Shown here: one piece after another, positions 52-27,561 of the stretch
Position numbering within the stretch: the first letter of the stretch is position 1
How the letters are laid out: each line of letters opens with the position of its first letter
DNA from: an uncultured delta proteobacterium
GTDB lineage: Bacteria; Desulfobacterota; BSN033; UBA1163
Assembly (NCBI GenBank): GCA_963708295.1
Contig: CAVPSJ010000017.1
Span: forward strand, 288,001-352,000
Direction of reading: 5' to 3'
DNA: 64,000 bases
Position numbers and translations under genes: made by a program
The notes under the pieces: generated by a model
What the model was told of the DNA's origin: nothing
The model's input: only the letters and a program-made list of their open reading frames with translations
The model's database searches: none

Positions 52-250
52 TGGGGTCGAATCTTTATCCTCAATTTTGCCTATATTTCACGAAAGTATT
101 CTTCTGCCCCTAGGTTCTTCTCTTGAAAATGAAGGTATATCTGCACCGCCACCCGTCGGATTGGAATATATCTATTTTATGAAAATGGGTCAACCGAAAC
201 TTTCGGAAAGAATGAGTCAAAGAAGTGGGCCGGTTGTCCCAGCGACAACT
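52..250. repeat. ~200-bp intergenic element, copy R1 (full)
   Basis: TGGGGTCGAATCTTTATCC...TATATTTCACGAAAGT...CTGCCCC...CCGCCACCC...GATTGGAATATATCTATTTTATGAAAATGGGTCAACCGAAACTTTC...AAGAAGTGGGC; aligns by eye with copies R2-R13. Confidence 0.9.
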
Positions 251-322
251 CTTCACTTTAAGATAGCTTTATGAGATAATGATTATTATTTGATTCTACA
301 GCCCCTTTACGACTTGTAGGGG

Positions 323-1579
323 ATGCCTGTGGAAACTCCACTCATCGAATTTAGAGATGTTACCAAGCGTTTTGGCGACCGGACTGTCCTTGACCAGGTC
401 AATCTGAAGATTTACGAGAATCAGATCACCACGATCATGGGCAAAAGCGGTGCAGGCAAGAGTGTTCTCCTCAAACACTTTATCGGTTTGCTCTCCCCTG
501 ATGCGGGGACCATCTTTTTCCTAGGGGGACCCCTTGACAAGATGAAAAGGGGAGAATGGGATCGATACAGAAGTCAGATCAGTTACCTGTTTCAAAACAA
601 CGCACTTTTCGACTCCATGACAGTGTTCGACAATATCGCACTGCCGCTGAGGCAAACGACAAGCTTAAGCAGGAAGGAAATTGAGCAAAGGGTGATGGCC
701 AGGATAGAGCAAACCGAACTCATGGAAGCGGCAGATAAATATCCGTCAGAACTCTCGGGTGGCATGCAGAAGCGTGTGGCCCTGGCACGATCTCTCGTGA
801 CAGACCCAAAGATCGTGCTCTTTGATGAGCCGACAGCCGGACAGGACCCGATCCGGAAAAATGCGATCCTGAGCATGATCGCCCATTATAGGAAAAAGTT
901 CGGTTTTACTGCGGTCCTCGTCAGCCACGACATTCCCGATGTTTTTTTCATTTCTGACCGGATCATTCTTCTCTGGGAGGGAAGGATAGCCTTTCAGGGG
1001 TCCTATGAAGAAGTCGCCAGGTTGGATCATCCCATGGCAGAGGAGTTTCTCCGGAGCCTCGAAGGGCTTCAGGATGAATTAACGGGTCTTCTTTCGAAAC
1101 AGATGTTCAAGGCCAAGTATGCCATGACGTTAAATCAGACGCAGGCAAAACAAACCGTTACGGCTGCGCTGTTCAGCGTGGAAATAGATCTTGTTACCGA
1201 AACACTTGGACCCTTGGCAGCGGCTGAGGTTGTCAAGGCCTTAGGAAAATACATCAATACAAACTTAGGTGCCTTAGAAGGATTCTCGGTCAGAAATCAT
1301 ACAGGGCAAATTCTGGCGATACTCCCCTATACCGATCTCCAGGAGGCGGAACAACTGGTGGATAATTTGGGGAGTGGACTTCAGAAGGAGGCATTATCAA
1401 ACATTCAGGCCCTCACTCAAGCGAAGATCGGTGCCAGTGCCTGTTTTGAAATCAACATTTATGCCGGTATCTCGGAAGCCAAGCCCGATGACGATATTGA
1501 CAATATCAGTGAAAGGGCAAGAGCTACCCAAAAAATCATTGGAACCTTTCGATGTGATTCGAAAGGTGGACGAATATGA
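323..1579 (+). CDS. ABC transporter ATP-binding protein (MlaF/Mkl-like) with C-terminal degenerate GGDEF-like domain
   Basis: Walker A GKSGAGKS, LSGGM signature, LFDEP Walker B, SHD H-loop; ~170-aa C-terminal extension with GGDEF-like pattern (ILAILP..., IYAGIS) but no GG(D/E)EF. Confidence 0.85.
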   Translation: MPVETPLIEFRDVTKRFGDRTVLDQVNLKIYENQITTIMGKSGAGKSVLLKHFIGLLSPDAGTIFFLGGPLDKMKRGEWDRYRSQISYLFQNNALFDSMTVFDNIALPLRQTTSLSRKEIEQRVMARIEQTELMEAADKYPSELSGGMQKRVALARSLVTDPKIVLFDEPTAGQDPIRKNAILSMIAHYRKKFGFTAVLVSHDIPDVFFISDRIILLWEGRIAFQGSYEEVARLDHPMAEEFLRSLEGLQDELTGLLSKQMFKAKYAMTLNQTQAKQTVTAALFSVEIDLVTETLGPLAAAEVVKALGKYINTNLGALEGFSVRNHTGQILAILPYTDLQEAEQLVDNLGSGLQKEALSNIQALTQAKIGASACFEINIYAGISEAKPDDDIDNISERARATQKIIGTFRCDSKGGRI

Positions 1580-1662
1580 AAAAATACTCTATAGAAACAA
1601 TCGTCGGCGTCGTCGTTGTCTCAGAAGGTTTTCTCCCGGATTTACCACATATCTTGGAATAG
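1576..1662 (+). pseudogene. Truncated MlaD-like N-terminus
   Basis: ATGA overlap with the upstream stop; reads MKKYSIETIVGVVVV (typical MlaD start), then loses similarity and stops after 28 aa, ~50 bp before repeat R2. Confidence 0.65.
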
Positions 1663-1711
1663 TACCTGGGTTCAGACTTAAAAATTGAGATCTAGATCGA
1701 GTAACTGAGTC

Positions 1712-1875
1712 GGGGTTCCGAGATCAATCCTTATTCTTGACTTCCCATATATCACGAAAGTTTGCTTCTGCCCCCAGGCCTTTTTACCTGAAAACGAAGA
1801 AATATCTAGACCACCACCCTGCGGATGTTGATTGGAATATACAAATGTTATGAAAATAGGTCAACCGAAACTTTG
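1712..1875. repeat. Intergenic element copy R2 (degenerate left end, short right tail)
   Basis: CTTATTCTTGACTTCCCATATATCACGAAAGTTTGCTTCTGCCCCCAGG...GAAAACGAAGAAATATCT...GATTGGAATATACAAATGTTATGAAAATAGGTCAACCGAAACTTT. Confidence 0.85.
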
Positions 1876-1929
1876 CGGGGTATCCCGGCATTTAATAAAT
1901 CTTCATTAATTATCTTTAAATCTACAATA

Positions 1930-3870
1930 CTAATAATTTCTATAAATAACCTTACCATCCTCATCGATATATTTATAAATTTTATCCTTTTTTTCAGAAC
2001 TATCTTTTGTGACGTATCCAATATAGAAATTAGAACCTTTGTAGACACCCTGAAACTTCGTTATATTACAACCGGTTTTTTGCTTTACAACCTCAGCTAA
2101 AGAACTTGGCATGTTGCCACGTATTGAATGTCTTGAGCTTGATACATTGGGGTCTTTGTAAGCATATGCTTCACCTATGTAACTTACTTTAGTGTTCTGT
2201 ATTCCTTCAACCCGGCTATCGTTCGATCCGGAAAAATAGATCTCTGAAAGACGCGCGTCGGGTAAAATATGTAAGCGCCATATTACTGGTTGATGAGAAC
2301 TTAAAACTAATTTCACAGGCAGATCTGTGTGACTAATAGTGACATCGGCATAGCCAGCAATTTTCTCCCCAAAACCTCTGCTGCGATTGTCTGGCAAACT
2401 TCCTTCATAAACACCAATTGCCTCTGTCTGGAAGTTTTGACAATTTATCTGCGGTGGTACAATAACTTTATCACTCTCCTTTTCAGGGGCTCCGATAGGC
2501 ATATCTTGAGAGATTACCTCTCCTATGATATCGCTAAACTTACCGAAACTAGTCTTTGAAGGCACATTTAATATCTTTAATTCATAGGGTGTGGCAAGAA
2601 GTAGTTGCCCGTTTGCTAAGACGGCCATTTTACTACTTGTGCCTGTGTACTCAGCCATTTTTTGGGCAGTTCCCCTACCCATGTCAACATAAAATGCTTC
2701 CCTTGAATGCGAGACCGATGTTTCCATGAGCAATAGATCTGTATTCTTAATCTGCGTCAGCGTAGCATACTCAAGCTTGCGAAACTTCAGTTGACGCATC
2801 TTTTTCAAGTCCGGCAAACTTCTTTGCACTATTAAACCGTGCGGCAAAGTGCCGTAAAATGACTTATTATCATTGGCAAATGCTATCGCACGCGGCTGAT
2901 AATCATAATTTGTCACTGGTTCTGCCGCACGCATGACTAAAGAAAGCTTTTCATCCATTGTTTTGATCAGTTCCCAGCTCTCTATATGACGATGTCGAAC
3001 TGCAATCAAGTACTTGTCATCAGGACTCATTACTATTAAGGAAGTTTTCTCTTTGCCTTCCACATTCCAAGCAACTTCTCCCTTTATTACGTCATAAATG
3101 CCAATGCTCTCTTTGCCGGAATATATAAAATATTGTCCCAGAGACATAGGCAATTGTTGGTATTGAGGAAGAGTTTTATGTCTGAGCAATTCGCCGGTCC
3201 TAACATCCCACATCGCGAGTTCCGTCTTGGGCGTGTAAACACACCAGATTAATATTCTACCGTTTGGAGTCAAAAAGAAACGATCGCCGAAACCCTTGTT
3301 TTTAATATACTTGGTGTTTATTCGATTAATGGCTTGCCCATTTACAAGGTCAAATATCTCTGTCGTATCATTTTGGAATGTGACAGCGGCCACCGGGGCG
3401 TCCGCGGATACAACAACTGAGCGAGGTGTACTCGGCCTAAGCTTTAGTTCCCCTGAAAAGCTTATGTTAATTGTGTTATTTGGAAGCGTGGCTTTCGAGG
3501 GGATGTCATACAAAAGACTGATTCTTTGGTCATTATATATTTCGATCCGCTGGGCATCGAAAGCTTCATAACATCCTATAAGGGTCTTATTGTCCTTAAT
3601 TAATCCAGCACAGTGACTTTTTCTCAATCTAAGCCAATCTTTGTGTGCAATTCTTAAAGCTTTTACTCTCTCGGGATTTGTTTCTAACGCGAGCAACGAT
3701 GAAAATACGGATTCTACTTTGGTTGCAGCAATGATCTGTTTTTCGCTGTCAGGGGTTTTGGTTTCACTGTCGAGCTGCATCAAATCCTGCGCGTAAGCAT
3801 TCAAGCAAATGGAAAATAGCACTGCAGCCAGCAAAACTCCTAGAGAATTCGACCGGTATCTTTTTGTCAT
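1930..3870 (-). CDS. Secreted protein: LprI/DUF1311-like N-terminus, WD40-like beta-propeller, C-terminal domain (paralog 1)
   Basis: Start moved from 4200 to ATG 3870 (MTKRYRSN..., signal peptide ending AYA-Q); WLRLRKSHC...C motif; WD-like repeats (MWDVRTGE, IYDVIKGE); terminal IYKYIDEDGKVIY resembles DUF4124. Confidence 0.75.
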   Translation of the reverse strand: MTKRYRSNSLGVLLAAVLFSICLNAYAQDLMQLDSETKTPDSEKQIIAATKVESVFSSLLALETNPERVKALRIAHKDWLRLRKSHCAGLIKDNKTLIGCYEAFDAQRIEIYNDQRISLLYDIPSKATLPNNTINISFSGELKLRPSTPRSVVVSADAPVAAVTFQNDTTEIFDLVNGQAINRINTKYIKNKGFGDRFFLTPNGRILIWCVYTPKTELAMWDVRTGELLRHKTLPQYQQLPMSLGQYFIYSGKESIGIYDVIKGEVAWNVEGKEKTSLIVMSPDDKYLIAVRHRHIESWELIKTMDEKLSLVMRAAEPVTNYDYQPRAIAFANDNKSFYGTLPHGLIVQRSLPDLKKMRQLKFRKLEYATLTQIKNTDLLLMETSVSHSREAFYVDMGRGTAQKMAEYTGTSSKMAVLANGQLLLATPYELKILNVPSKTSFGKFSDIIGEVISQDMPIGAPEKESDKVIVPPQINCQNFQTEAIGVYEGSLPDNRSRGFGEKIAGYADVTISHTDLPVKLVLSSHQPVIWRLHILPDARLSEIYFSGSNDSRVEGIQNTKVSYIGEAYAYKDPNVSSSRHSIRGNMPSSLAEVVKQKTGCNITKFQGVYKGSNFYIGYVTKDSSEKKDKIYKYIDEDGKVIYRNY

Positions 3871-4108
3871 CTTTTTGTGTTCGCCGCTGTTCTCCATGCC
3901 GCCCTCCGGGTTTCCAAAATCTTCCGCCATCTGCCACGATAAGAACGTTTCGTCATAGCAATAAACGTCCTTAGGTTTCTCGTCCTCCACTGCAATGGAC
4001 TCCTGTCTAGGGGGGACGTCGAAATGAACCTCCCAATGCTCCGTTTTCGACCGTAAAAGGGAAAAAACTTGATCTGAAACTTCCCCTCTCAACCTCGGAA
4101 GGTCATTC

Positions 4109-6070
4109 CTAATAATTTCTGTAAGTGACATTACCGTTCTCATCGATCTGTCTATAGATTTTGTCCTTTGTTCCAGAAATATCTTTTGTGATGTATCCAA
4201 TATAGAAGTTAGAACCTCGATACACGCCCTGAAACTTCGTTATATTACATCCGATTTTTTGCTTCACAACATCAGCTAAACTTGGGATGTAAGGATATCT
4301 TGACCTTGATACATTGGAATCTTCGTAAGCAAACGCGTCGCCTATATGGATTATTGTTATGCTTTGTGCTCCTCCGACTCTGCTGTCCTTTGAACCAGAA
4401 AGATAGATTTCCGAGAGACGTGCGTCTGATGAAATATGTAAGCGCCATATTACTGGTTCATGAGAACTCAAAACTAATTTCACAGGCAGATCTGTATGAC
4501 TAATATGGATGTCCACATTGCCGGCAATTTTCTCCGCCCCACCCCTGCTGCGATTGTCTGCTAAGCTTCCTTCATAGACACCGATTGCCTCTATTTGGAA
4601 ATTCTGACAATTTATCTGCGCTGGTGCAATACCTTTATCCCTATCCTTGTCAGGGGCTTTGATAGGCATATCTTGAGAGATTACCTCTCCTATAATATTG
4701 CTAAACCTATCTAAGCCCGTCTTAGAGGGCACTTTTAATGTCTTTAATTCATGGGGTGTGGCAAGAAGCACCTGGCCGTTTGCTAAAGGCGCTGTTCTAC
4801 TATTTGCGCCTGTGTGCTCAGCTATCTTTTTAGCGGTTTGTGCAACCATATCAACATAAAATGCTTCCATGTTTTGATCCGAGAACCATGCTTCCATAAG
4901 TAATAGATCTGTATGTTTAATCTGTGTCAGGATAGCATGCGAGAGGTTTGGAAACTTCAGTTGACGAATCCCCTTCAAGTCCGGCAATCTTCTTTGTACT
5001 ATCAAACCTCGCGGCAAAGTAGCGTAAAATGATTTATTATCATTAGCGAAAGCTATCGCAAGCGGCTTAAGATTAGAACCCTCCACCTGTTCTGTTGCAC
5101 GCAGAACGAAAGAGGGGGCTTCATCCATTGCTTTCACGAGTTCCCAGCTCTCTATGGAATGATCTCGAACTGCAATCAAGTACTTGTCGTCAGAGCTCAT
5201 TGCCATCAAAGAAATCCACTCCCTACCTTCTGCCACGTTCCAGGTAGCTTCTCCTTTTATTACATCATAAATGCCAATTCTGTATCTGTCGGGGAAAGAA
5301 TCGGAATAGACAAAATATCGTCCTTGAGAGGTAAGTAAGTGGTTATGTTGCGTAAGTGTTTTGTGTCTAAGCAATTCACCGGTCCTAACATCCCACATCA
5401 TCAGCTTTGCCCTTGGCACATAAAAAGAGCCAATCAATATTCTGCCGTTTGGATCCAAGAAGAAATGAACACCAGGCCTGCTGATTTTGGCATCGAAGGT
5501 TTCTATTCGATTAATAAGCCGCCTGCTAGCAAGGTCAAATATCTCTGTCATATTATTATTGAATTCGACGGCGGCTATTGGAGCATCTGCTGATACGACA
5601 ACTGAGCGAGGCACGGCCCGATTCGTGTTGTATTCTTGTGAATAGGTTAGGTCCGTTGTGTTGTCTGGAAGCGTGCCTTGCGAGGGGATGTCATACAAGA
5701 GGCCTATTCTCTGGTTATTTAAGGCTTCAATCCGCTGGATATCGAAAGCTTCATAACATTCTGAGAGCTTCTTGTCGTCTTTCTTAACGTCCTCATCCAT
5801 TAATTCAGAACAGTGGCTTTTTCTCAATCTGAGCCAATCTTTATGCTCGAGTGTTAAAGCTTTTACTCTCGCTGGATTTTTTTCCAAGGCGAGCAATGAT
5901 GAAAATGCGGATTCTACTTTGTTTGCCGCAATGATTCGTTTGTCGCCGTCAGGGGTTGATTTTGTTATGTCGGTGATATCTTGATTACATCCGTTTAAAG
6001 TGAAAAATAGGAAGAGGAAAGCACTAAGGGGAATAATAAAAATAATCGTTACAGTTTGTCGTTCTGCCAC
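4109..6070 (-). CDS. Lipoprotein paralog 2 of the LprI-like/beta-propeller protein
   Basis: Colinear with 1930-3870 over its whole length; lipobox LNGC; start likely GTG 6070 (purine-rich RBS; the ORF-track start at 6121 lies inside the sigma54 promoter). Confidence 0.75.
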   Translation of the reverse strand: MAERQTVTIIFIIPLSAFLFLFFTLNGCNQDITDITKSTPDGDKRIIAANKVESAFSSLLALEKNPARVKALTLEHKDWLRLRKSHCSELMDEDVKKDDKKLSECYEAFDIQRIEALNNQRIGLLYDIPSQGTLPDNTTDLTYSQEYNTNRAVPRSVVVSADAPIAAVEFNNNMTEIFDLASRRLINRIETFDAKISRPGVHFFLDPNGRILIGSFYVPRAKLMMWDVRTGELLRHKTLTQHNHLLTSQGRYFVYSDSFPDRYRIGIYDVIKGEATWNVAEGREWISLMAMSSDDKYLIAVRDHSIESWELVKAMDEAPSFVLRATEQVEGSNLKPLAIAFANDNKSFYATLPRGLIVQRRLPDLKGIRQLKFPNLSHAILTQIKHTDLLLMEAWFSDQNMEAFYVDMVAQTAKKIAEHTGANSRTAPLANGQVLLATPHELKTLKVPSKTGLDRFSNIIGEVISQDMPIKAPDKDRDKGIAPAQINCQNFQIEAIGVYEGSLADNRSRGGAEKIAGNVDIHISHTDLPVKLVLSSHEPVIWRLHISSDARLSEIYLSGSKDSRVGGAQSITIIHIGDAFAYEDSNVSRSRYPYIPSLADVVKQKIGCNITKFQGVYRGSNFYIGYITKDISGTKDKIYRQIDENGNVTYRNY

Positions 6071-6113
6071 TTTCTTCCTCTTCAGATAGCTTTCATTTCT
6101 GGTGCCTTTGTAA

Positions 6114-6129
6114 AGCAACAATTATGCCA
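6114..6129 (-). promoter_or_regulatory. Sigma54 (-24/-12) promoter
   Basis: Minus strand TGGCATAATTGTTGCT matches TGGCAC-N5-TTGC; lies within a ~155-bp module duplicated at 30561-30716. Confidence 0.75.
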
Positions 6130-6369
6130 GCTTAATAATGTTTGTAACATATTGCAATTAAATTGCATTTTGAGCGATTGCCAAACAAATTCCCTCAAAA
6201 TGGCTAATTCCTATATGTCTCGTGACAATCTTGAACCTATTATTCCCGGGCCACTGATCCGCTTCAGGGGCTTCTGATCCACCTTCTCATAGTTGCCTCT
6301 GTGCGCAGGAACCCAGACTTTCCGTTCAAGAAGGGAGAGAAATATAGAATCATGGAATTTGCCGGAATT

Positions 6370-6432
6370 TGGGGTCAACCGAAACTTTCAGAAAGAGGGA
6401 CTGAAAGAAGTGGTTGCTTTGTTACACTTACA
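6370..6432. repeat. Intergenic element copy R3 (collapsed or right arm only)
   Basis: TGGGGTCAACCGAAACTTTCAGAAAG...AAGAAGTGGTTG...TTGTTACAC. Confidence 0.75.
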
Positions 6433-6496
6433 CTGTTCGTTGAGAGATATCATGGAAAACAATGATGACGGGTCGAAATGTGCATGAGTATAACCG

Positions 6497-6543
6497 AAAA
6501 AACCAAGAGGAGTGGGCTATGGTCAACAACCCACTCCTCCTTG
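6497..6543 (-). terminator. Probable intrinsic terminator of the MBL hydrolase gene
   Basis: GAGGAGTGGG...CCCACTCCTC stem with nearby A-tract (U-tract on minus), just downstream of the stop at 6568. Confidence 0.55.
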
Positions 6544-6567
6544 CTTACCGGACACGATCACTTTCGT

Positions 6568-7611
6568 TTAGGCCGAGATGATATATCTCGTACCAACCGT
6601 ATTCAATATAAACTGATCGGGCATCTCTCGCGCGAAAGCCCCGACGGCCTCATACCCTGTACAGTGGATAGGGACTATATAGTCTGGTTGTATGGCCTTG
6701 ATATCCGCAATGGTTTTCTGAATGAGTTCAGGTTTGGCCCCTGTTAAGTGGAACCCTCCAACGACTAGGTGAACCTTCTCGGTGCCGGTCATCCTTTGAG
6801 CCTGCTTCACCGTATTCACAATCCCTCGATGGGCGCACGCGGAGAGCACGACCAATCCCTTCCCTTTGGCATTGAACACGATCGCCTGCTCTCCGATAAA
6901 ATCCTCCTGAACATACTCATCTCCTCTCTTCTTCACGAACATAGGCGGTATCTTTTCATAATCCGTGACTTGCTCAACCCTGCCTGCCAGGTAGGCCCCC
7001 TGAACGATGGGCGTGGGTGCCTTTACCTCTGTAATCTTGACGAGGCCCAACCCCTCAACGTCCTCCCTTTTCAACGCGAAGATGCTTCTAATCTTACCAT
7101 CGGGCATTCTCATATAGGTTCCTACAAAGAACTGCTCTCCCACGTAAAAGGGGATACCCCGGGGAATCTCTTCCCGCTTTGCCTTAAGAAGTTCTACCAG
7201 GGCTGCCTGGTGGTCACGGTGGTCATGGCTCAAGGCTATGGCCTCGATATTCTTTAGGTCTAGCTGCAGTAACTCTATATTATTTTTCATCCCCTGAGCA
7301 TCACTCGCAAAATCGAAGAGAAAGGAATGAACCCGGCCCTCCACAGTGGTCTCCACATGATATGCCAGGCCGTGCTCGCCATGCAGTCCGCGATTGGTCG
7401 TGGCTGCATATCTCTTCGCTATCTTATAATCCGGTCTGAGTGCGTCGGCGTAGTTGTCCGTGATGACGGTGATGACTATCTTCTCCGCTTCGGGTATCTT
7501 GACTGTTCCTTGCGCAAAGGCACGGTTCCGAAAGATATCGCCTGTCAAAAGGACAGTGCTGGTAACTGCTGTAGTCTTCAAAAAATCCCTTCGATTCATT
7601 TCTTTTAACAT
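6568..7611 (-). CDS. Tat-exported MBL-fold metallo-hydrolase (7,8-dihydropterin methyltransferase-like family)
   Basis: NRRDFLK Tat motif; GEHGLAY, LSHDHRDH, SACAHRG, GGFHL, PIHCTG; start at ATG 7611 after GAAAGGGGG. Confidence 0.85.
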   Translation of the reverse strand: MLKEMNRRDFLKTTAVTSTVLLTGDIFRNRAFAQGTVKIPEAEKIVITVITDNYADALRPDYKIAKRYAATTNRGLHGEHGLAYHVETTVEGRVHSFLFDFASDAQGMKNNIELLQLDLKNIEAIALSHDHRDHQAALVELLKAKREEIPRGIPFYVGEQFFVGTYMRMPDGKIRSIFALKREDVEGLGLVKITEVKAPTPIVQGAYLAGRVEQVTDYEKIPPMFVKKRGDEYVQEDFIGEQAIVFNAKGKGLVVLSACAHRGIVNTVKQAQRMTGTEKVHLVVGGFHLTGAKPELIQKTIADIKAIQPDYIVPIHCTGYEAVGAFAREMPDQFILNTVGTRYIISA

Positions 7612-7887
7612 ATATATACACCCCCTTTCTTGGGCATCTAAGAGCATTAATGGATTCTCGCGAAATAAGAGATCCCCAGAGAGTCAAAAGCCTCCAAAGG
7701 GATAGTCAATTCCCTTGGAGGCTTTTGACTCGGAACCTCTGGAAGTCCCTTTTCATAGCCCTCTCCAAAAGGTTGAGGTTAGGTTGTGAGGTTGGCTTTC
7801 AAAAACGATGTGATTTAATAAGAGGGTACTGATTCTAATTGAAAAAGTCAACAAGAATTATTCAAGAATTATTGGTTAGAATTTGCG

Positions 7888-8817: not shown

Positions 8818-8830
8818 TTGCTGGACATTC

Positions 8831-9020
8831 GAGGCCGAATCTATTCTTTACTTTGTCTGTATTCCACGAAAGCCTTATTCTGACCCCCGTTTATTTCCGG
8901 GAAATGAAGAAATGTCTGCGCCGCCCCCCTGCGAATTTCTGATTGGAATATATAAATGTTATGAAAATTGGTCAACCGAAACTTTCAGAGAGAAAGAGTC
9001 AAAGAGGTGCCCCCCTTGTT
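8831..9020. repeat. Intergenic element copy R4 (full)
   Basis: GAGGCCGAATCTATTCTTTACTTTG...TTCTGACCCC...GATTGGAATATATAAATGTTATGAAAATTGGTCAACCGAAACTTTCAG. Confidence 0.9.
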
Positions 9021-9040
9021 AGGTGTATGTCGCCGATGGG

Positions 9041-9985: not shown

Positions 9986-10017
9986 GAAGTGGTGCTCCTT
10001 ACATGGATCTGGGGACC

Positions 10018-10226: not shown

Positions 10227-10273
10227 TGATATCGGCTAATATCGGCTATTGAAGATTATAGTTTGAAATGTGG

Positions 10274-17946: not shown

Positions 17947-18082
17947 ATCTCTACCTCCTTTTCAAAATTTTCACTTGTTTTTGCTTCTGTACTAAAAGGG
18001 ATATAACAATGACTGAATATGATGTGCATATTTACCAAAAATAGTCAATCGAGAAGTTCAGGAACCAATAGGGTAGGTGGTT

Positions 18083-18294: not shown

Positions 18295-18392
18295 TGCTCA
18301 AGGTCCGAAGATGACGAGCTGAAAGTGAGGATAGGGTCCGGGTTGAGTGGACGCAAACCCGCAATTCAATTCTTGAAACGGTGTCCGGCGGG

Positions 18393-20346
<1,954 letters not shown>

Positions 20347-20542
20347 ACACCTTATCCTTTCCGACAGATTTTGCCTTGAACGCCATAGCATAGCCGCACT
20401 GTTTATTTGTCATTCATAATATAACTTTTATTTTAAAACTAGGGAAGTGAATGTTTCAAGGAAGGAGTGCTCAGGCAAGGGGTTGCGGACTTTTGGGCAA
20501 TCCGCCCCATCGGAATCAAGTATTCCGGGATGGACTTTGGGG

Positions 20543-21307
20543 TCAGTCCCGCTCATGATCTTTGTTGACAATGCTCCATTCCCTCTTTGGCCATTTTAAG
20601 AGAGGTACGAGCATCGGCACTCTCTTCTGGTATTCCCGATAGGCATCACCGAATTCGACGATGAGGTCGATTTCTTCGAAGTATGAGCCGATCACGATCC
20701 AGACCGTCCACAGAAGGTTGAACAGTAGCCTGTCCCTTGTCAGATCCGGGCAAGACCAGATCATTAGTATCATGAAAAGGTAAAGCGGGTGGCGTACCCA
20801 GCGGTAAGGTCCTGCGACTGTAATAGGCATTGGCGTCGGATTCCTGCCTCGCAAACGATTCAAGATTGGTCTCAGGCCGAAGGGGTCGAAGAACCGCAGT
20901 GCTTTAACACCCCAATAAAACCCGAGAAGGGAAAGGAAAGAGACTGCGCGGAGCGACCAGCGAAGGAGACCGGATGGTGTAATGACTGTCTGAGTCGACG
21001 TCTGCCACAGCAGAATCACTAACAACAACACGATTCCTGAGGCAATCGCATAAATGGCGCCGGCATATTCTTCCGGAATGAAGCGTGCCAACCAGCGGCG
21101 GAACGGCTTTCGGATCATCCCGCTGTGTTGAATGAAAAACAAGAGGGAGAGACCGGCATCAAGCCATAAGATCCCACTTTCATCCAGATGCATGTCCAAG
21201 AGATTTAAAGACCCCACAAATAGAAAGATCATAAATACGAGTAGCGACATTCCACCCAAAATTCGAGCCAGACCAATGATTATGTACGCTGTATATTTAC
21301 TCATCAT
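20543..21307 (-). CDS. Isoprenylcysteine carboxylmethyltransferase family membrane protein (MddA/NnrU-like)
   Basis: FIQHSGM, GPYRWVRHPLY, EE..L...FG..Y..Y...VPM; start MMSKY after AGGAAGAGG. Confidence 0.8.
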   Translation of the reverse strand: MMSKYTAYIIIGLARILGGMSLLVFMIFLFVGSLNLLDMHLDESGILWLDAGLSLLFFIQHSGMIRKPFRRWLARFIPEEYAGAIYAIASGIVLLLVILLWQTSTQTVITPSGLLRWSLRAVSFLSLLGFYWGVKALRFFDPFGLRPILNRLRGRNPTPMPITVAGPYRWVRHPLYLFMILMIWSCPDLTRDRLLFNLLWTVWIVIGSYFEEIDLIVEFGDAYREYQKRVPMLVPLLKWPKREWSIVNKDHERD

Positions 21308-21510
21308 CCTCTTCCTGTGAAATCCACTCCTACTACCAAAGTGTAATGATCGGTCTGTGCTAAGAGGTATTGATTTTGCTTGAGATAATAGCGGCAAAAT
21401 CCAGATAAACATATCTGTCGAGGACACGAATGCCCCTCGGAAGTGTTTTCTTTCCTCCTGCCGTCAATCTTACGAAAGGCAACTTTTGAATTGTATTGCC
21501 GTGCGAAAGT

Positions 21511-21651
21511 CTATTTTTCCTTCTTGCTCTTCCGCTTCATGTCCAGGCTGTGTGCACGTTTATAAGTCTGAATGTCCTTGAAACGACCTTTGCTGTCCCT
21601 TACGGCATAGAGCTTCGTTCCCGATACACTGCGGTGCGTTGTACGACGTGC
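21511..21651 (-). pseudogene. Small basic protein lacking its start codon (not in the ORF track)
   Basis: Reads ARRTTHRSVSGTKLYAVRDSKGRFKDIQTYKRAHSLDMKRKSKKEK*; the codon before Ala is TAG contributed by repeat R11. Confidence 0.6.
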
Positions 21652-21895
21652 CTACATCGCCACCCGGTTGATTTCTGATTTGAATATACAAATTCTATGA
21701 AGATTGGTCAACCGAAACTTTCAGAAAGAAAAAGTCAACCCTTCGACTCCGTGGCCTGGAGGTCGGTGCTCTTGTTCGACCCAATCTCAGCCGACGGGCT
21801 CAGGGTTGACTGAACGGCGCTTCGTACCTTCACCGGTGCTTGGCGCCGCCGAACGGGTCAAAAAGGGGAGCTGGTTGTTTAACCTGCAAGTCCTC
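21652..21895. repeat. Intergenic element copy R11 (right half, interrupted by a REP-like insertion at 21739-21861)
   Basis: CGCCACCC...GAATATACAAATTCTATGAAGATTGGTCAACCGAAACTTTCAGAAAG..GTCAA[insert ending GTCAA]AAAGGGGAGCTGGTTGTTTAACCTGCAAGTCCT. Confidence 0.85.
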
Positions 21896-22277
21896 ACTGA
21901 AAGATAATCTTGCAAGTTTGACCATCACGAATAGAAAGCAAGCAGAGGGAGCGAAATAAAAATGTTACCTTTTTGGAAGGGTAACTTCGACACAGAGGAG
22001 GGCGAGGATAAAAAAAGCATACAAGCTTTTTTCCATTGGCCAGCGAGGCGGGGGGGGGTAGTGAAGTGAAAGTCACAGGAAGGAACCACACATTTGGTAA
22101 ACCTGGGGACGGCCCTTACATTCTGGTTCAATAACGAAATGAGACACACACTCACTCTCGTCCGAAGGAGGAGTCTCAACGCAGAGACGCAAAGGACGCG
22201 GAGGAACTGATTTTAGCCACCCTGAACGAAAGCTCCAGGGAAGTAGTTCAATGGGCGTATTTCCCCGGAGCTGGTTT

Positions 22278-22958
22278 TCAGGAAATATTCTCTTTGTTCC
22301 CTTTCACAAAGGCATTCAACGTGGAAAGAATACTTCTCACATTTACAATGTAGACCCTGGATTTGATGCCGTTGCCCCGATGGTATTTGCCAAAATCCTT
22401 CCCGAAGAACTTATAGACATGGCAGGTTAAAAAGATATTGATCGATGGATCCAAGAGTTGGTGGGGCATCAATCCAAAGTCCTTGCCCCAGTGCTCCCAA
22501 TTGATCTGTCCGAGACCGTAGTCGCCGGTCTCCTTGTTGATGCAATCCTCTCTGAAATTGCTTTCGGCCATAATGATCGCAATGATTTCAAGAGGGTTTA
22601 CGCCATTTTTCTGGGAAGCATGGGAGATCAAACCGGCATACCTCAACAGTTTAGCTTCGGGAAGCTGGTTTCCGGTAATGAACCGAATCACATTCGCCAG
22701 ATGCAGAACTTCCTTCACGCTGGAATCGGAGGATTTTGTGATGGAAAGAAATTCCTCCATTCCGGCTGGAAAGTCCGTTCGCAGGCTCTTTTGGGCCAGA
22801 GGCGCAATATATTCGAGCACGAAAAAAGCGGTAACGGCCACGAGGAAGACGACTTTAACAGATTCCAGGACGGTGTGGAGAATCATCCTTTTCTTAAATT
22901 TCGAGTTAAAGTCATGCACCGAGTTACACGTAATCACATGGATGTTGAAAAGCTTCAT
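22278..22958 (-). CDS. Transglycosylase SLT-domain protein
   Basis: AIIMAESNF (catalytic Glu), GDYGLGQIN, LLDPSINI; N-terminal membrane anchor; start uncertain. Confidence 0.8.
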   Translation of the reverse strand: MKLFNIHVITCNSVHDFNSKFKKRMILHTVLESVKVVFLVAVTAFFVLEYIAPLAQKSLRTDFPAGMEEFLSITKSSDSSVKEVLHLANVIRFITGNQLPEAKLLRYAGLISHASQKNGVNPLEIIAIIMAESNFREDCINKETGDYGLGQINWEHWGKDFGLMPHQLLDPSINIFLTCHVYKFFGKDFGKYHRGNGIKSRVYIVNVRSILSTLNAFVKGNKENIS

Positions 22959-23006
22959 TCCCCCTCCTCCTCTTTCAAAATATCCATTCCCTTCATTTAG
23001 TTATGA

Positions 23007-23318
23007 TCAGACCACAACCCTTCTATGAACGGTGCTTTTGGACGGCAGCGGCCCTTTCCTGTTAATCCGGATTTTCTTCTGCAGCTTTCTAAATGCCTCT
23101 TCTTCGGACCGCCTGATCGCCTCTCCCGTTAGACCCCATGCATCACCAATTTCCTCCGGAGTCCAGGGGTATGTGATCCTGCAGCAGCAGTTTCTTATCT
23201 CAAGCGCCTTGTCCGTCATTTGGATTTTGTCTCTATCGAGGCTTAACTCTTCCCAGAATAAGTTGTGAGGACATTTGAAATTCGTACAATATAAATCCGA
23301 ACTCAATCCTGTGCACAT
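23007..23318 (-). CDS. Small Cys-rich protein with sigma70 region-4-like HTH
   Basis: C..C...CPHNL...NCC followed by TPEEIGDAWGLTGEAIRRSEEEAFRKL. Confidence 0.65.
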   Translation of the reverse strand: MCTGLSSDLYCTNFKCPHNLFWEELSLDRDKIQMTDKALEIRNCCCRITYPWTPEEIGDAWGLTGEAIRRSEEEAFRKLQKKIRINRKGPLPSKSTVHRRVVV

Positions 23319-23972
23319 CTCTCAGCCCTCCTCTCGGCTACTTCTTGCAAAAGAGTGTAATGGTTTTGTGATATTGATATACAAATCCATCTTTCTCTCT
23401 TCTTTCCGATCACCCTCTAGGCGGTACCGTAAACAAATGACCTTATTCATGATGCAATCTCTCACAACTAAAGAATCCCCCAAAAACAAAAAAGCCCGTG
23501 TCAAAGTTGACCACGGGCGAATATTAATGCGATACTTTTTGTTAACCGGGAGACTCCTCATTCATATCACCGTTCATTGTAATTATAAGTTTATTTTTTA
23601 AACAACTTCTTCCTCCAGCATTCTGCAATCGGCACGTTATGTAGTTATTCAAGTCCCGTGCCACAAAAACCATCCGGCAGATCTATTATGCCACTTGACA
23701 ACACCGCACTATTTTTTCACACCTCTTGACAAAACAAGTTTAAGAAATCTTGGGGCGGTTTAGAAGAAATGTGCCGATCGGGCAAACGATTGAGCCAAAA
23801 GGTAAAGAAGGTTTAATAAGTATCAGTAATTACATTTGTTTTTCTAGACTAAAAAGGAGAGTCCTTTTTGGAAATAGGTTTTTATGTAAGTATCCAATTT
23901 TAAAGCAAGAAAGAGGGACCGATGAAAGGTCAGACCTCTGGGGTCGAATTTTTAAAGTCTGGGTCCGCAGAA

Positions 23973-24368
23973 TTAGCCTTCGGCTGGGATGAAGGGTTGG
24001 GCACAATGTTCATTAGAGATCATTTCCTCTTTCTTGGACCGAGGCATCGCTTTTATCTGTGCTTCTCGAATAAGAGCTTCGGAATGCGTCAAACCTCCTT
24101 GTTGATATAACAGCCGGACGGGCAGGCGAGTTCGGGTGTAGGCCGCTCCCCGCCCCTCACCATGTTGCTTGATCCGAACCTGCACATCTTTTGCTATCCC
24201 CGTGTAGAGCGACCCATCCCCGCAGCGGAGGATGTAGACTGTCCAATCCTTTCTCCCCCCTCTCGTCATCCCTTGGATCATTTTCAGGTATTTCGTCTCC
24301 ACATTCTCTCCGGATTGGGGCTTCAAAGGCAATGCAATATCTCGCTTAAGTGCATTCGAGTTTCCCAT
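23973..24368 (-). CDS. GIY-YIG nuclease family protein (UPF0213/YhbQ-like)
   Basis: WTVYILRCGDGSLYTGI...R...H..G.GAAYTR, ALIREAQIK. Confidence 0.9.
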   Translation of the reverse strand: MGNSNALKRDIALPLKPQSGENVETKYLKMIQGMTRGGRKDWTVYILRCGDGSLYTGIAKDVQVRIKQHGEGRGAAYTRTRLPVRLLYQQGGLTHSEALIREAQIKAMPRSKKEEMISNEHCAQPFIPAEG

Positions 24369-24371
24369 TCA

Positions 24372-24496
24372 GGAAACGAGGAAATATTTATGCCCACACC
24401 CTGTTGATGGTTGATTGGAATATACAAATTTTATGAAAATTGGTCAACCGAAACCTTTTCAGCAACAAAGACTCAAAGAGGTGGGCTGTTTGTTAG
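24372..24496. repeat. Intergenic element copy R12 (right half)
   Basis: GAAACGAGGAAATATTT...GATTGGAATATACAAATTTTATGAAAATTGGTCAACCGAAACC...GACTCAAAGAGGTGGGCTGTTTGTTA. Confidence 0.85.
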
Positions 24497-24585
24497 GATT
24501 ACCAGTAGAAAAGTTGAAAGGAGGATAAATAAAAAGGCAGAGTCTTGTGTGGTCCTGCCTTGGCTTTTGACGATTGAAGATAGGA

Positions 24586-24825
24586 TTAATTCTTAATGGG
24601 CATGTGAGATGGAATGACCCGGGAGAATTTGCCTGTATATTCACTTAGGGTTACCTTTTTGTAAAAAATAGTTTTTTTGCTCTCATTATCACCTAAAAGC
24701 ATTTTCCCCCATTTCATGACCGATGCATCGGTTATTCTTCTTGGGTCTTTTCTCCTTTCTGGTAGTATTCCTATTAAATCGTATTCCTTTACCGGGTCAC
24801 TGCAATAAAATTGATAGACTACCAT
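24586..24825 (-). CDS. Small hypothetical protein
   Basis: RBS GGGAGG; LIGILPERRKDPRRIT..SVMKWG motif looks like real coding sequence. Confidence 0.6.
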   Translation of the reverse strand: MVVYQFYCSDPVKEYDLIGILPERRKDPRRITDASVMKWGKMLLGDNESKKTIFYKKVTLSEYTGKFSRVIPSHMPIKN

Positions 24826-24990
24826 GAGAACTACCTCCCGATCTCGGTTTAAAATTTGTTCTAGGCATCATTCTCTGTTCCTGCATCGATGCTGGTCGAG
24901 GTCATCCATCGCCTTCCGGAAGCCGTTAATGTTTCTTTCTTCTGACAGTCTCTTTCTGCATAGCGGCGCTAAACTCTCCTTCGAACAGGG

Positions 24991-25920
24991 CTACTTGTTG
25001 CGGGATTTATTCTTGAGTTTTTGAGCCACTGCGAGAACGGTGTTGGCATAGATGGAACTCTTGTTGTAACGGAGGATCACTTCGCGCTGAGTGCCTTTAT
25101 CCATGGTGACCTTCCAGCCGTGCTCCCGCAGATAATTGGCAATGCTGTAGGAGGCATCGGCCTTTGTAAAGAGATCGATGCGGCCGTCATGATCGGCGTC
25201 TACTCCATAGGATAAGATATTGGAGGGTAAAAACTGGCAGAGGCCAATTGCTCCGTAGATGGAACCCGGAAAAGTCAACGGGTCGAATTCACTCTGGTTG
25301 GCATACAGGATCAGGGCTTTGAGCTCTGCGTAGGCCCAATCTGCTTTTTTCCGGCAGATGGTTCTGGCAAAGTCTTCATTCCCGGGATTGATCAGTTTTC
25401 TGGGAAGGTAAGGCCTAACGGTTTCGAGGTCTGCGCTGAGTGCCATGGAAGCCAGAGTATTGAAAGCCCGCTTCCCTCCCACGCTATCCCCGAGGTGGGT
25501 TTCCACCAGAAGTATGGAAACGATGATTTCCTTGGGCACGCAGTATTGATGGTTGATGTTTTCCAGAAGCTCTGCGTTCTCCTGGAGGTAAGAGTGCGCT
25601 TGGGCTATCACATTTTCTTTCAGATAACATGAATAGACAACTTTTGGATTGTCGGAGGGAAGTCTTGGCACTTTTTCCATCAACTCCTTGAGCTTGCTGG
25701 ACATGGGAGACGGCTCAAACGTTACCTCAGCCCGGGAGAAAAGAATCCGTACGGTGGTCTCATCAAAACCATCGGCTACTAAACGGTCAATAACAGGAGA
25801 CCAGTCGGCGAACACCCAGCAAGGCGATAATAGGAGGGCGGTGAGGACTGAGACGAATAGGAGCATCCTGAATCTTAGGTGAACTGTTGTTTGGTGCATA
25901 TCCCAATATCCTGATTTCAT
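24991..25920 (-). CDS. Lytic murein transglycosylase (MltB-like)
   Basis: IIVSILLVETHLG, GSIYGAIGLCQFLPS, DADHDGRIDL, SIANYL..HGW, YNKS..Y. Confidence 0.9.
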   Translation of the reverse strand: MKSGYWDMHQTTVHLRFRMLLFVSVLTALLLSPCWVFADWSPVIDRLVADGFDETTVRILFSRAEVTFEPSPMSSKLKELMEKVPRLPSDNPKVVYSCYLKENVIAQAHSYLQENAELLENINHQYCVPKEIIVSILLVETHLGDSVGGKRAFNTLASMALSADLETVRPYLPRKLINPGNEDFARTICRKKADWAYAELKALILYANQSEFDPLTFPGSIYGAIGLCQFLPSNILSYGVDADHDGRIDLFTKADASYSIANYLREHGWKVTMDKGTQREVILRYNKSSIYANTVLAVAQKLKNKSRNK

Positions 25921-25951
25921 GGAGGTCCAAATCTCTTATGGGTATGGTATT

Positions 25952-25967
25952 TGCAACTTTGGTGCCG
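25952..25967 (-). promoter_or_regulatory. Probable sigma54 promoter of the MltB-like gene
   Basis: Minus strand CGGCACCAAAGTTGCA. Confidence 0.55.
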
Positions 25968-26243
25968 CATTTTTGTAGCACCGTAACTATTTGTTATTAT
26001 AAATTTATCTTGAACTGCCCGATATTTTAACCAAACTCAAAATTGAAAGGCTTTTCCACAAAAGTCCCGAATTACTTCCCCTAAAGGGGAAGATCTGTTT
26101 TCATTTCTTGTTGTGGGTCGAGGGGATTGTTGATTATCAGAAATCTGGCGAGAAGTGTAGATTCCTAACTTGACGGCTTCAGGAAATACTTCCGACCGCA
26201 GGCCCTTTCACGTTTCAAGGTCAGCGGGGAGGGAGGGTTGGAC

Positions 26244-26684
26244 TCAGATATAATCCTCCCACTTCTGTCCTGTGTCGACCAGGGGTCTAATATCATAGAC
26301 TTCAAATTCTACCGCGGCGTAGATGGCCTTTGCTGCCTCCTCTGAAACTCTCGCAGCAACCTGTTTTCGAAAAGCAATCAGTTCATCTCCCTCGGTCTTG
26401 TAACCGGTCATTCTTAGATAAACTCTGAGTCCCCTCCATTCACTGGTGGTCTTTCCTGGCTCCATAATCATAAAGACAGCGTAAGGGTTCTCCTGAAGGT
26501 TAGCAAAGGTCCGGTTCTTTCTTGTTGCCATGATGACTCTTTTTTCACCTGTCATCCTGGGAGAGCCGAAAATAGCTACATTGACCCGTCCGTCTTTCTC
26601 GGCTGTACTGAGCGAACCGAGCCTGGGCATCTTGTTAAAATATTCCATCAGTTTTGCTGACATAAAACCCTCCTTCCGTACCAA
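26244..26684 (-). CDS. Pyridoxamine 5'-phosphate oxidase family protein
   Basis: LSTA..DG.VNVAIFGS, RTFANLQENPYA; true start probably MSAKL. Confidence 0.85.
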   Translation of the reverse strand: MVRKEGFMSAKLMEYFNKMPRLGSLSTAEKDGRVNVAIFGSPRMTGEKRVIMATRKNRTFANLQENPYAVFMIMEPGKTTSEWRGLRVYLRMTGYKTEGDELIAFRKQVAARVSEEAAKAIYAAVEFEVYDIRPLVDTGQKWEDYI

Positions 26685-26701
26685 TTAAGCAAATGATTGT
26701 A

Positions 26702-27436
26702 TTATTCTGCCTTCCTCGAATGTGTCCCGATGGTCCAGTTCCTCGTTCTTTTTACAAAATCCTTTACCTCATTTTCATCCCTGAAATCCCCTTGGCCGCA
26801 ATCATCATAATGAACCATCTTTTTCGGATCCCTCATGAACTTCTCACTGGGATGAAGGGCAGGGTAGCCAATGGCCATCATGTCATAAGGCTCCATCTCG
26901 ACCGGAACTCCCAATAGATCCTTTACCATGCAACTTGTGAAGGGAGTGGTGACCGCAGATACCCACTGAGAGGCCAATCCCAGGGTGGCAGCGGCCAAAT
27001 GCATGTATAAAAAAGCACTGGCAAGGCTTGAGGTGAAAGTCAACTGGCAACGATTTTGATCATACCTGAGGCCCATCGGGAGTCCTACCTTGGTTCGGGT
27101 ATCCCCAAGAAGGATGATGAACACAGGCGCTGTGGTAAAATCCATTCCCGCGTCGAGTACGCCCGAAGTCGTCCAGGGTTTTCCCTGCCAGGATTCTCTG
27201 GTGCCCTCCATGCTTTTTGCCAGTTTCCAATATTCGCCGATATATTCAACAATCTTTTTCCTCAGCTCCGGCTTTTTAACCACGACAAACTCCCAAGGTT
27301 GCAGGTTGAAACCCGATGGCGCCCAGCGGGCAACCTCAATGATCTTGTCTATGGACTCATCAGGGATCGGGTCCGGCTTGAAACGACGTATACTCCTTCT
27401 CTTTTTCACCAGCGTCAGCAGGCTATCGTAATCCAT
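26702..27436 (-). CDS. Nitroreductase family protein
   Basis: RRSIRRF..DP, ARWAPSGFNLQPWEFVVV, HLAA..LGLASQW; RBS AAGGAG before ATG 27436. Confidence 0.92.
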   Translation of the reverse strand: MDYDSLLTLVKKRRSIRRFKPDPIPDESIDKIIEVARWAPSGFNLQPWEFVVVKKPELRKKIVEYIGEYWKLAKSMEGTRESWQGKPWTTSGVLDAGMDFTTAPVFIILLGDTRTKVGLPMGLRYDQNRCQLTFTSSLASAFLYMHLAAATLGLASQWVSAVTTPFTSCMVKDLLGVPVEMEPYDMMAIGYPALHPSEKFMRDPKKMVHYDDCGQGDFRDENEVKDFVKRTRNWTIGTHSRKAE

Positions 27437-27470
27437 GCCAATCTCCTTCTTTTTATCCCCTGTCATTCTC

Positions 27471-27561
27471 TTGGAATATATCTATTTTATGAGAATTGGT
27501 CAACCGAAACCTTCAGGAAGGATGAGCCAGAAAAATGAAGGGATTTGGGGTCAACTCTTTA
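27471..27561. repeat. Element copy R13 (promoter plus right arm) followed by an isolated left end
   Basis: TTGGAATATATCTATTTTATGAGAATTGGTCAACCGAAACCTTCAG, then TTGGGGTCAACTCTTTA at 27545-27561. Confidence 0.85.

Follow-up and report, generated by a model that had tools for sequence, protein, structure and literature searches.

Co-oriented copies of a promoter-like repeat among species-variable genes of uncultured Thermodesulfobacteriota

The first 28 kb of a 64,000-nucleotide stretch of DNA (contig C17:288,001-352,000, hereafter the window) hold 13 full or partial copies of a ~206-nt repeat, which stand between unrelated genes (the cargo) and whose conserved core is a sigma-70-like predicted promoter on the minus strand, facing those genes. 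The window belongs to G000, a metagenome-assembled genome of 20 contigs and 4,946,535 bases (91% complete, 5.6% contamination) from an uncultured delta proteobacterium of wetlands. The best explanation, to which we give somewhat better than an even chance, is that the repeats are reused promoter modules whose conserved cores act as homologous-recombination sites. This reading draws on the clustering of the copies, on the retention of the promoter-like core in truncated copies and on comparisons of related genomes, in which array content changes at the repeats more often than their share of array bases would predict.

Copies of the repeat and their promoter-like core

A profile of 210 positions, built with nhmmer from seven aligned full window copies and applied with a cut-off of E <= 0.01, matched the whole G000 genome 29 times. 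The clustering noted in the window holds at this scale, with 27 of the 29 copies in a single ~50-kb locus (C17:265,586-315,537), all on the plus strand. The 13 window copies have E-values of 8e-08 to 1e-60, and 14 further copies lie to the left at C17:265,586-285,688, the array beginning 22.4 kb outside the window. Only two copies stray from this locus, one at C4:588,205-588,313 (minus strand), ~70 nt upstream of a co-directional open reading frame (ORF), and the other at C12:110,624-110,708 (plus strand). Independent repeat finding recovered the same window copies as overlapping families of 5-10 copies each, all in the first 28 kb. The original prediction, made from the letters of the window, had listed 13 copies in one orientation and none in the remaining 36 kb. 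The profile recovers every one of them, with a real offset at one only (14711 instead of 14595, where the copy begins at profile position 25), places all 13 on the same strand and finds no copy in 27,538-64,000. The prediction had also described the intervening genes as unrelated and mostly on the minus strand, which a Pfam scan bears out. A search of the whole window against Rfam 15 at gathering thresholds returned a tRNA alone, and no family matches the repeat. GC skew along contig C17 tracks the coding strand, and the array is not placeable relative to origin or terminus.

Six of the 13 window copies are full length, and seven are truncated at one or both ends. They are listed here with the cargo-facing strand (minus), on the basis of the nhmmer profile, a promoter scan (10/12 matches) and the Pfam scan.

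47..244, minus: full copy, profile 2-206 (E 4e-59), promoter-like core from TTGACC (193..) to TATATT (..165)
1713..1887, minus: copy lacking the distal upstream part, profile 2-178 (E 9e-47), promoter-like core 1864..1836
6372..6429, minus: remnant, profile 149-206 only (E 8e-08), the upstream part without the -10 box
8827..9024, minus: full copy, profile 4-204, core 8975..8947, upstream of a methyltransferase gene (7888-8817, minus)
10013..10217, minus: full copy, profile 2-206, core 10168..10140, 28 nt upstream of a class-A beta-lactamase-family gene (9041-9985, minus)
12335..12540, minus: full copy, profile 2-207, core 12488..12460, upstream of an S15/CocE-type hydrolase gene (10419-12275, minus)
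13510..13707, minus: full copy, profile 2-206, core 13656..13628, 72 nt upstream of an XRE-cupin regulator gene (12751-13437, minus)
14711..14820, minus: partial copy, profile 25-133, leader part and -10 region without -35 (nhmmer, alignment)
16354..16475, minus: partial copy, profile 4-127, leader part only (nhmmer, alignment)
18079..18283, minus: full copy, profile 2-205, core 18233..18205, upstream of a Usp gene (17476-17946, minus)
21649..21738, minus: partial copy, profile 93-182, promoter core only (nhmmer, alignment)
24369..24497, minus: partial copy, profile 78-203, abutting the start of a small GIY-YIG gene (23973-24368, minus)
27458..27537, minus: rightmost partial copy, profile 107-189, overlapping the start of the longest nitroreductase ORF (26702-27466, minus)
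1930..27466, mostly minus: unrelated cargo genes (Pfam scan, 27 ORFs)

Read on the minus strand, the repeat runs from a T-rich stretch through the palindrome GAAAGTTTCGG, a -35 hexamer (TTGACC), a 17-nt spacer containing a second palindrome (ATTTTCATAAAAT) and a -10 hexamer (TATATT) into a shared leader of up to ~120 nt, which starts with the conserved CAGGGTGGCGG. Hexamers near consensus, a spacer of 16-18 nt and an orientation towards the gene agree with a sigma-70-type promoter by sequence criteria. Across 147 copies collected from 15 regions of seven genomes, the most conserved columns are AAGTTTCGG-TTGACC-AATTTTCATAAAATnnn-TATATT-CCAATCA. A loose -35/-10 pattern is present in 113 of the 147 copies, with a 17-nt spacer in 112 of these; the -35 hexamer of the 113 reads TTGACC in 109, and the -10 hexamer reads TATATT in 84, TATACT in 21 and TACATT in 8. 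When window positions 1-20000 were scanned for promoters, seven of the nine sites scoring 10/12 were minus-strand repeat copies. The same scan found 29 sites overall against 22.9 expected, and we therefore place weight on the top-scoring sites alone.

Truncation is common among the 147 copies (40 full, 50 without the leader end, 19 without the far-upstream end and 38 without both), yet the promoter core at profile positions 118-160 is retained in 127 of them. The stretch found in nearly all copies (approximately profile 95-170) reaches from the palindrome just upstream of -35 through CAGGGTGGCGG, ~20-30 nt past the predicted start, and would correspond roughly to the footprint of RNA polymerase; full copies carry ~100 nt of additional shared leader, including a second GAAAnTTTC palindrome. 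The element had been described as a delimiter in the original prediction. It does separate genes, but that description underweighted the fact that its best-conserved part is a promoter-like control region facing each gene.

Folding predictions gave little structure in any part of the repeat. RNAalifold returned consensus energies of 0 to -0.05 kcal/mol for 72 sequences of profile 140-206 on either strand, -3.1 to -3.6 kcal/mol for 26 full copies, whose terminal columns were unpaired, and 0 kcal/mol for 50 leader sequences considered as a structured RNA or riboswitch. A single full copy folded as single-stranded DNA scored z = 0.21 against shuffles, and one leader folded as RNA scored z = 0.77. 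A small plus-strand ORF (MKIGQPKLSE...) that crosses the core was rejected as coding: its start codon reads ATG, ACG, GCG, GTA, ATA or TAG among copies, with a 1-nt deletion in one of them. Resemblances of parts of the repeat to dif sites, tRNA T-arms and heat-shock elements were weighed by eye and dropped.

We scanned 64 ORFs across C17:250,069-319,908 with Pfam (27 in the window, 25 in the left extension of the array and 12 in its left flank). Cargo in the window includes two tandem paralogues of unknown function, an MBL-fold protein, a methyltransferase, a class-A beta-lactamase-family protein, an S15 hydrolase, an XRE-cupin regulator, DUF4442, HbpS-like and Usp proteins, a split OYE/pyridine-nucleotide reductase, NnrU, SLT transglycosylases, a GIY-YIG protein, a PNPOx-like protein and a nitroreductase. 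Hydrolases among the 64 ORFs comprise a carboxylesterase, two S15/CocE-type enzymes and the class-A beta-lactamase-family and MBL-fold proteins, and redox proteins comprise two nitroreductases, the OYE-type reductase, an acyl-CoA dehydrogenase, the PNPOx-like protein and molybdopterin-binding proteins. HxlR and XRE-cupin regulators, Usp, DoxX/MauE, PilZ, MFS transporters and antitoxin-like proteins make up others, several ORFs belong to no family, and toxin-antitoxin pairs occur in array cargo. Over the 15 arrays of seven genomes, 65,529 of 81,916 residues (80%) in crudely called ORFs of at least 80 amino acids (aa) are encoded in the direction of the promoter. Copies lie at varying distances from the next co-directional ORF; measured from the leader end and taking the longest ORF, the median is near 100 nt.

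Several cargo genes have features of their own. The tandem paralogues at window 1930-6121 (minus; 756 and 670 aa) share 71-86% nucleotide identity in blocks and have no convincing Pfam or NCBIfam family, with a weak beta-propeller match at most. The OYE and pyridine-nucleotide-disulphide reductase gene at 18393-20391 (minus) is split into two overlapping ORFs, one (19738-20391) holding Oxidored_FMN 2-169 and the other (18393-20054) holding 171-339 and Pyr_redox_2, the split being a frameshift or an assembly error. Gene fragments also occur in arrays, among them Esterase 1-71 of 251 at window 14859-15353 (plus) and AhpC 3-37 of 124 at L010:4713-4976. The small GIY-YIG gene (YhbQ-like; window 23973-24368, minus) immediately follows a repeat copy. 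It is among the few conserved array residents and is located within or next to arrays in G000, G003, G006 and G010. Outside the array, positions 43837-50948 of the window contain a direct duplication with ~6-kb spacing, in which matched blocks (43,837-44,346 with 49,830-50,340, and 44,772-44,861 with 50,859-50,948) are 88-96% identical; a tRNA-Phe was scored in the second copy only (50903-50976, minus), and the tRNA-like end of the first (~44,772-44,861) went uncalled.

Arrays in relatives and their turnover at the repeats

All genomes compared were metagenome-assembled, and their ORFs were called crudely. With one copy as the query, a BLAST-type search matched 13 of the other 14 genus genomes; it gave short core matches only in five of ten other genera of the family, and none in 16 genomes outside the family. 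An exact core 21-mer was found in 57 stretches of a species-representative collection, nearly all from uncultured Thermodesulfobacteriota, delta-proteobacterial or Syntrophales metagenome-assembled genomes; exceptions include a Dehalococcoidia-binned contig with two co-oriented copies and a Melioribacteraceae match of just 26 nt. Collections of viral contigs, phages and plasmids contained no match to the repeat. Each of the 147 copies is co-oriented with the others of its own region. In the nearly closed genome G010 (two contigs), all 42 core matches lie on one contig, in four clusters (plus strand at 207-270 kb, 1,286-1,292 kb and 1,572-1,581 kb; minus strand at 1,711-1,744 kb) and as an isolated copy at 125 kb. 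Repeats carry a risk of assembly error, yet G010 and G003 (10 contigs) give the same pattern.

Two observations concern the array flanks. In G003 (L042-L044), orthologues of the left-flank genes at C17:249,855-252,048 lie to the right of the array and reversed, and the direction of the array relative to them is opposite to that in G000 and G010; either the whole array has been inverted, or this is another array, on the opposite side of those genes. In G010, the first repeat is separated from the conserved left flank by a restriction- or defence-like block (L029; C1:198,967-206,599) that encodes a DNA methylase, an AAA_21 ATPase and a ResIII-type helicase and has no counterpart in G000.

Left-flank genes common to G000 and G010 are 88-95% identical, while the adjoining arrays share only five blocks, mostly in the same order (an AAA/DUF4143 gene, an HxlR gene with a ferredoxin-domain gene, a 256-nt piece, the XRE-cupin gene and the GIY-YIG gene), and all else differs. 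Cargo thus differs between species beside the same left-flank genes, in line with the variable content that the original prediction had looked for. We compared homology blocks of at least 400 nt and at least 82% identity between genomes: 61 of 152 block ends within arrays lie no more than 60 nt from a repeat, a zone that makes up 11.4% of array bases, which amounts to a 3.5-fold enrichment. We also compared repeats from different regions by their 300-nt flanks, counting a flank as orthologous at 82% identity or more over at least 150 nt. Among 38 pairs with an orthologous flank, 36 were one-sided (17 on the leader side only, 19 on the upstream side only) and two shared both flanks. The same cargo flank adjoins repeats in two G010 arrays that are 1.5 Mb apart.

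Individual repeats carry the trace of such changes. The repeat at G010:239,976 matches G004 C49:24,846 on its leader side and G004 C49:20,770 on its upstream side, with the switch inside GGAATATAT...TTTT near the -10 box; at the place of this one chimeric repeat, G004 therefore has two repeats and, between them, ~4 kb of additional cargo. Clean three-way switches fell at profile 118-122, 121-140, 133-140 (twice, in related triads) and beyond 148, all within the conserved core and at differing positions, and two other triads were mosaic. Copy starts range over profile 16-155 and copy ends over 146-195 among the 147 copies, and the distance from the XRE-cupin gene to the repeat in metagenome contigs is 43, 86, 86, 163, 216 or 360 nt, with six different truncations. 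Switch intervals and truncations thus vary, and no one precise crossover point at a site end emerged.

Identity between copies is ~75% whether they are compared within an array, between arrays or between genomes (77% for neighbours), 100 of 145 copies have their best match in another genome, and near-identical copies are absent apart from overlapping hits. This uniform divergence, together with the best matches elsewhere, argues against both a recent burst and homogenisation. Only the core (~50 nt) is more similar between unrelated copies, at ~90% (87-92%), with profile bins 121-165 at 78-92%. Contigs from four wetland sequencing runs that match window 8000-19000 are short (the longest pieces listed are 124-771 nt), join across repeats with sides of 20-51 nt, and show a summed depth in repeat bins far above that of cargo bins, with many unlike loose ends; we give them no weight as to rearrangement.

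Two other mobile or repeated sequences touch the repeats. A GC-rich hairpin (CCCCGCCC-TGTG-GGCGGGG) at window 14682-14715 adjoins a partial repeat copy; its bin has a summed depth of 1,200-3,600 in the wetland contigs, where most cargo bins reach tens to a few hundred, and many unlike loose ends at both borders, and it looks like a separate, widespread short repeat. The G003 stretch C2:14,185-39,281 (L042-L044) contains two types of insertion sequence (IS), with DUF772 and DDE_Tnp_1_6 transposases (492 aa; 518-524 aa) and three copies each. Four of these six IS copies sit at the same position of four different repeats (...GGGGTCGAATCTTTA / IS / TTTATCCTTGAC...), in either orientation and with TTTA duplicated, which suggests that they prefer that spot of the repeat.

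Mechanism and competing explanations

On the reading we favour, each repeat would be a promoter with operator-like palindromes and a leader, maintained by selection, with transcription starting at the predicted core. From every copy one or more accessory genes lying downstream would be transcribed, making the locus a row of separately promoted, co-directional transcription units, and one regulator would probably be common to all of them. The conserved core may also be long enough to serve as a target of homologous recombination, such that recombination between direct copies, or with array DNA of relatives, could delete, insert or swap the intervening genes and leave a chimeric copy with orientation and location preserved. 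A circle excised between direct copies would bear one copy and would regain its direction on re-entry at any copy; clustering and co-orientation would therefore follow without a dedicated enzyme. We infer that RecA-type recombination does this shuffling, since homologous recombination fits both the scatter of crossovers within the core and the lack of a linked recombinase. The original prediction of a locus-specific array built by recombination or capture at the element accordingly stands in part: the 27 of 29 copies in one locus, the breakpoint enrichment and the chimeric repeat at the 4-kb indel speak for it, while the dedicated enzyme and the defined site that it implied were not borne out.

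Searches for such an enzyme covered the arrays and their surroundings. None of the 64 ORFs in C17:250,069-319,908, which extend past the array ends, has a recombinase, transposase or reverse-transcriptase domain in Pfam, and one IS3 transposase carried as cargo is the sole transposase exception counted across the examined arrays. Tyrosine-recombinase matches in G000, G010 and G003 all lie far from arrays, the nearest in G000 being a 121-aa fragment 78 kb off, and serine recombinases were found only on the other, array-free contig of G010. The catalysing enzyme that had been placed outside the window did not appear at either end of the array. Two cargo or flanking genes were considered as array enzymes and set aside: the GIY-YIG gene is unconvincing, being a single-copy gene in 11 of 15 genus genomes, repeat-poor ones included, and a 417-aa ORF adjoining the first copy (C17:264,269-265,522) has no Pfam or NCBIfam family, occurs in two of the 15 genus genomes away from arrays and is no paralogue of window 323-1579. 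The XRE-cupin gene (12751-13437) is likewise not supported as the regulator of the arrays. Orthologues of at least 90% identity occur in seven of the 15 genus genomes, all seven with at least five repeat matches in the BLAST-type search, but repeat-rich G003 has none, and among 32 metagenome loci with an orthologue a repeat is present in seven and absent from 25.

Several points weigh against the explanation by promoter modules and homologous recombination. The breakpoint enrichment (p ~1e-19, binomial) was calculated against array bases and not intergenic bases, from related genomes that are not independent, and 91 of the 152 homology ends lie away from repeats. At ~75% identity, whole copies are a poor RecA substrate outside the core. 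The mechanism accounts neither for the conservation of a ~120-nt shared leader that has no predicted structure, ~100 nt of which is kept in 40% of copies, nor, if homologous recombination acts alone, for the first acquisition of the module by unrelated genes. A recombinase acting in trans may, moreover, be encoded far from the arrays, G000 being 91% complete. A broader possibility, which we think unlikely but would not neglect, is that the ~200-nt module belongs to an as yet undescribed gene-capture system of uncultured Thermodesulfobacteriota, serving both as the cassette promoter and as the site of excision, insertion and exchange between species. Just as tentatively, such a system might be operated by a distant recombinase or by a directed form of homologous recombination.

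A new site-specific cassette system, in which a recombinase encoded elsewhere acts on the repeat or on a core site and each cassette brings its promoter, is more doubtful than this. The integron-like layout, with 27 co-oriented copies in one locus and four co-oriented arrays in G010, the species-variable cargo and the element-bounded indel with its chimeric repeat would all suit it, as would three of five clean crossovers compatible with profile 133-140, several truncated copies that stop just past CCGAAACTT, and the onset of flank-specific sequence immediately past the conserved ...TTTGTT with which the repeat ends upstream. Yet recombinases, transposases and reverse transcriptases are missing in and beside the arrays save for the IS3 cargo, the other crossovers fall at 118-122 and beyond 148, the starts of copies scatter over ~100 profile positions and their ends over ~50, the repeat follows the same XRE-cupin gene at 43-360 nt and with differing truncations in different lineages, and the copies are old. 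At the opposite extreme, the locus could be a static regulon island, formed by old tandem duplications of a promoter-gene unit followed by gene replacement and decay, in which the repeats are now co-regulated promoters only. We hold this to be doubtful in about equal measure. It would explain why divergence within an array equals that between species (~75%), why the core coincides with the region that RNA polymerase is expected to contact (~profile 95-170), and why arrays contain gene fragments, a split gene and 91 homology ends off repeats; it sits poorly with the 3.5-fold enrichment of breakpoints at repeats, the 36 of 38 pairs with one orthologous flank, the chimeric repeat at the 4-kb indel and the cargo flank present in two G010 arrays 1.5 Mb apart.

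Spread by a transposase, as a non-autonomous element akin to a miniature inverted-repeat transposable element (MITE) or to an IS end with an outward promoter, appears quite improbable. Promoter-bearing MITEs are known, for example the Correia elements (named in PMC3575422), and the upstream repeat end GGGCTGTTTG resembles, by eye, the terminal repeats CGGGCTGTTG and CAGTCTGTTG of the two IS types in the G003 arrays. However, all 147 copies are co-oriented within 15 regions and 27 of 29 share one locus, near-identical copies and matches in phage, plasmid and viral collections are lacking, and the terminal columns are unpaired in the consensus fold, which leaves no terminal inverted repeats; target-site duplications were not searched for systematically. 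We see only a very slight chance that the arrays are clusters of attC sites lacking an integrase (CALIN), in which an IntI provided in trans would use the repeat, or just its last 57 nt, as attC. An integron integrase exceeds the curated cut-off in four of 15 genus genomes, with C-terminal fragments in G010 and G003, and AAC...GTT triplets can be discerned by eye in profile 149-206. But neither strand has a conserved hairpin (alifold ~0 for profile 140-206; single-stranded DNA z 0.21), and the last part of the repeat is absent from 58 of 147 copies. Nor does repeat number track the integrase: G000 has 27 or more copies and no match over the TIGR02249 integron-integrase cut-off, while the genomes with intact IntI mostly have few BLAST-type repeat matches (none in G001, one in G013 with two IntI, five in G011), G006 with 15 being the exception. 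Eight stretches around integrase matches held only three weak partial repeat hits (E 0.01-0.08), none convincing, and an integrase contig of G011 bears a different repeat. The view that the element is neither an attC site nor a scattered MITE, already taken in the original prediction, agrees with the missing hairpin, the lack of a linked IntI and the clustered, co-oriented copies. The G011 repeat itself (L038; C108:7,113-13,341; core GGCCAACTTTTTTATGGATGACCCC) occurs in seven copies at 0.5-2.1 kb spacing beside the integron integrase, and these are probably the attC sites of that integron.

Relation to known systems and significance

A literature search, with supplements outside its scope, found no description of the repeat. 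The nearest described concept is that of putative mobile promoters (PMPs; Nijveen, Matus-Garcia and van Passel 2012, PMC3575422), defined by an identity of 80% or more across a minimum of 50 nt in front of genes with non-paralogous coding sequences; they occur mostly in pairs, and their means of movement is stated to be unknown. The core comes within this definition (bins 121-165 at 78-92%, unrelated Pfam families downstream) when judged without the -150 to -50 start-codon window used for PMPs. Like PMPs, the repeat places similar sequence before unrelated genes and matches no known IS or Rfam family (PMC3575422). Unlike them, it reaches 29 to 42 or more copies per genome, forms arrays in which as many as 27 copies share one orientation and a leader of up to ~120 nt, and marks the boundaries of species-variable cargo; clustering and orientation are not described for PMPs (PMC3575422).

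Integron arrays and CALIN offer the closest likeness in layout. In the portions of Cury et al. (2016, PMC4889954) that treat these elements, attC is an imperfect palindrome with R''-L''/L'-R' boxes and 'similar palindromic structures', and 'Cassettes rarely contain promoters'. Measured against that description, the arrays resemble integrons and CALIN in their one-directional repeats between single unrelated genes or small operons, their cargo turnover, their toxin-antitoxin pairs and the absence of a nearby integrase. They differ in having no palindromic attC fold, no link to IntI, a ~206-nt promoter-bearing repeat and imprecise junctions, and the repeat stands upstream of the gene that it faces, whereas the integron recombination site is at the 3' end.

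Other comparisons come from better-known genomes. The Vibrio cholerae repeats (VCRs) of the superintegron were first noticed as a co-oriented intergenic repeat among unrelated genes at one chromosomal locus, and proved to be ~120-nt, highly similar, hairpin-forming attC sites beside an intI gene. Our repeat shares with VCRs its co-oriented intergenic position at one locus, but has no hairpin, ~75% identity and no intI. In the minimal mobile elements of Neisseria, genes are exchanged in a fixed place by homologous recombination through conserved flanks, without a dedicated recombinase. There the homology is that of flanking genes at single sites, whereas here it would lie in a repeated promoter module at many tandem sites. 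Correia elements are likewise short repeats that bring a promoter, but they have terminal inverted repeats and target duplications and are scattered in both orientations, whereas our repeat has no terminal inverted repeats and is not so scattered.

Integrons are the textbook means of shelving and swapping accessory genes, by way of a special integrase and folded attC sites, and the arrays described here match that layout with a seemingly ordinary promoter as the sole shared part. If our preferred explanation is correct, a reused promoter doubles as portable homology and builds a cassette shelf without a dedicated enzyme, and every shelved gene is simultaneously wired into a common control circuit. 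Were the repeat instead part of a gene-capture system, the arrays would be an integron-like 'gene shelf' in which each cassette is expressed from its own co-regulated copy of the promoter. The arrays provide ~150 natural variants of one predicted promoter, and they bear on how promoters spread to new genes, a movement described as unknown for PMPs (PMC3575422), as well as on how uncultured wetland anaerobes assemble their hydrolase, oxidoreductase and detoxification genes.

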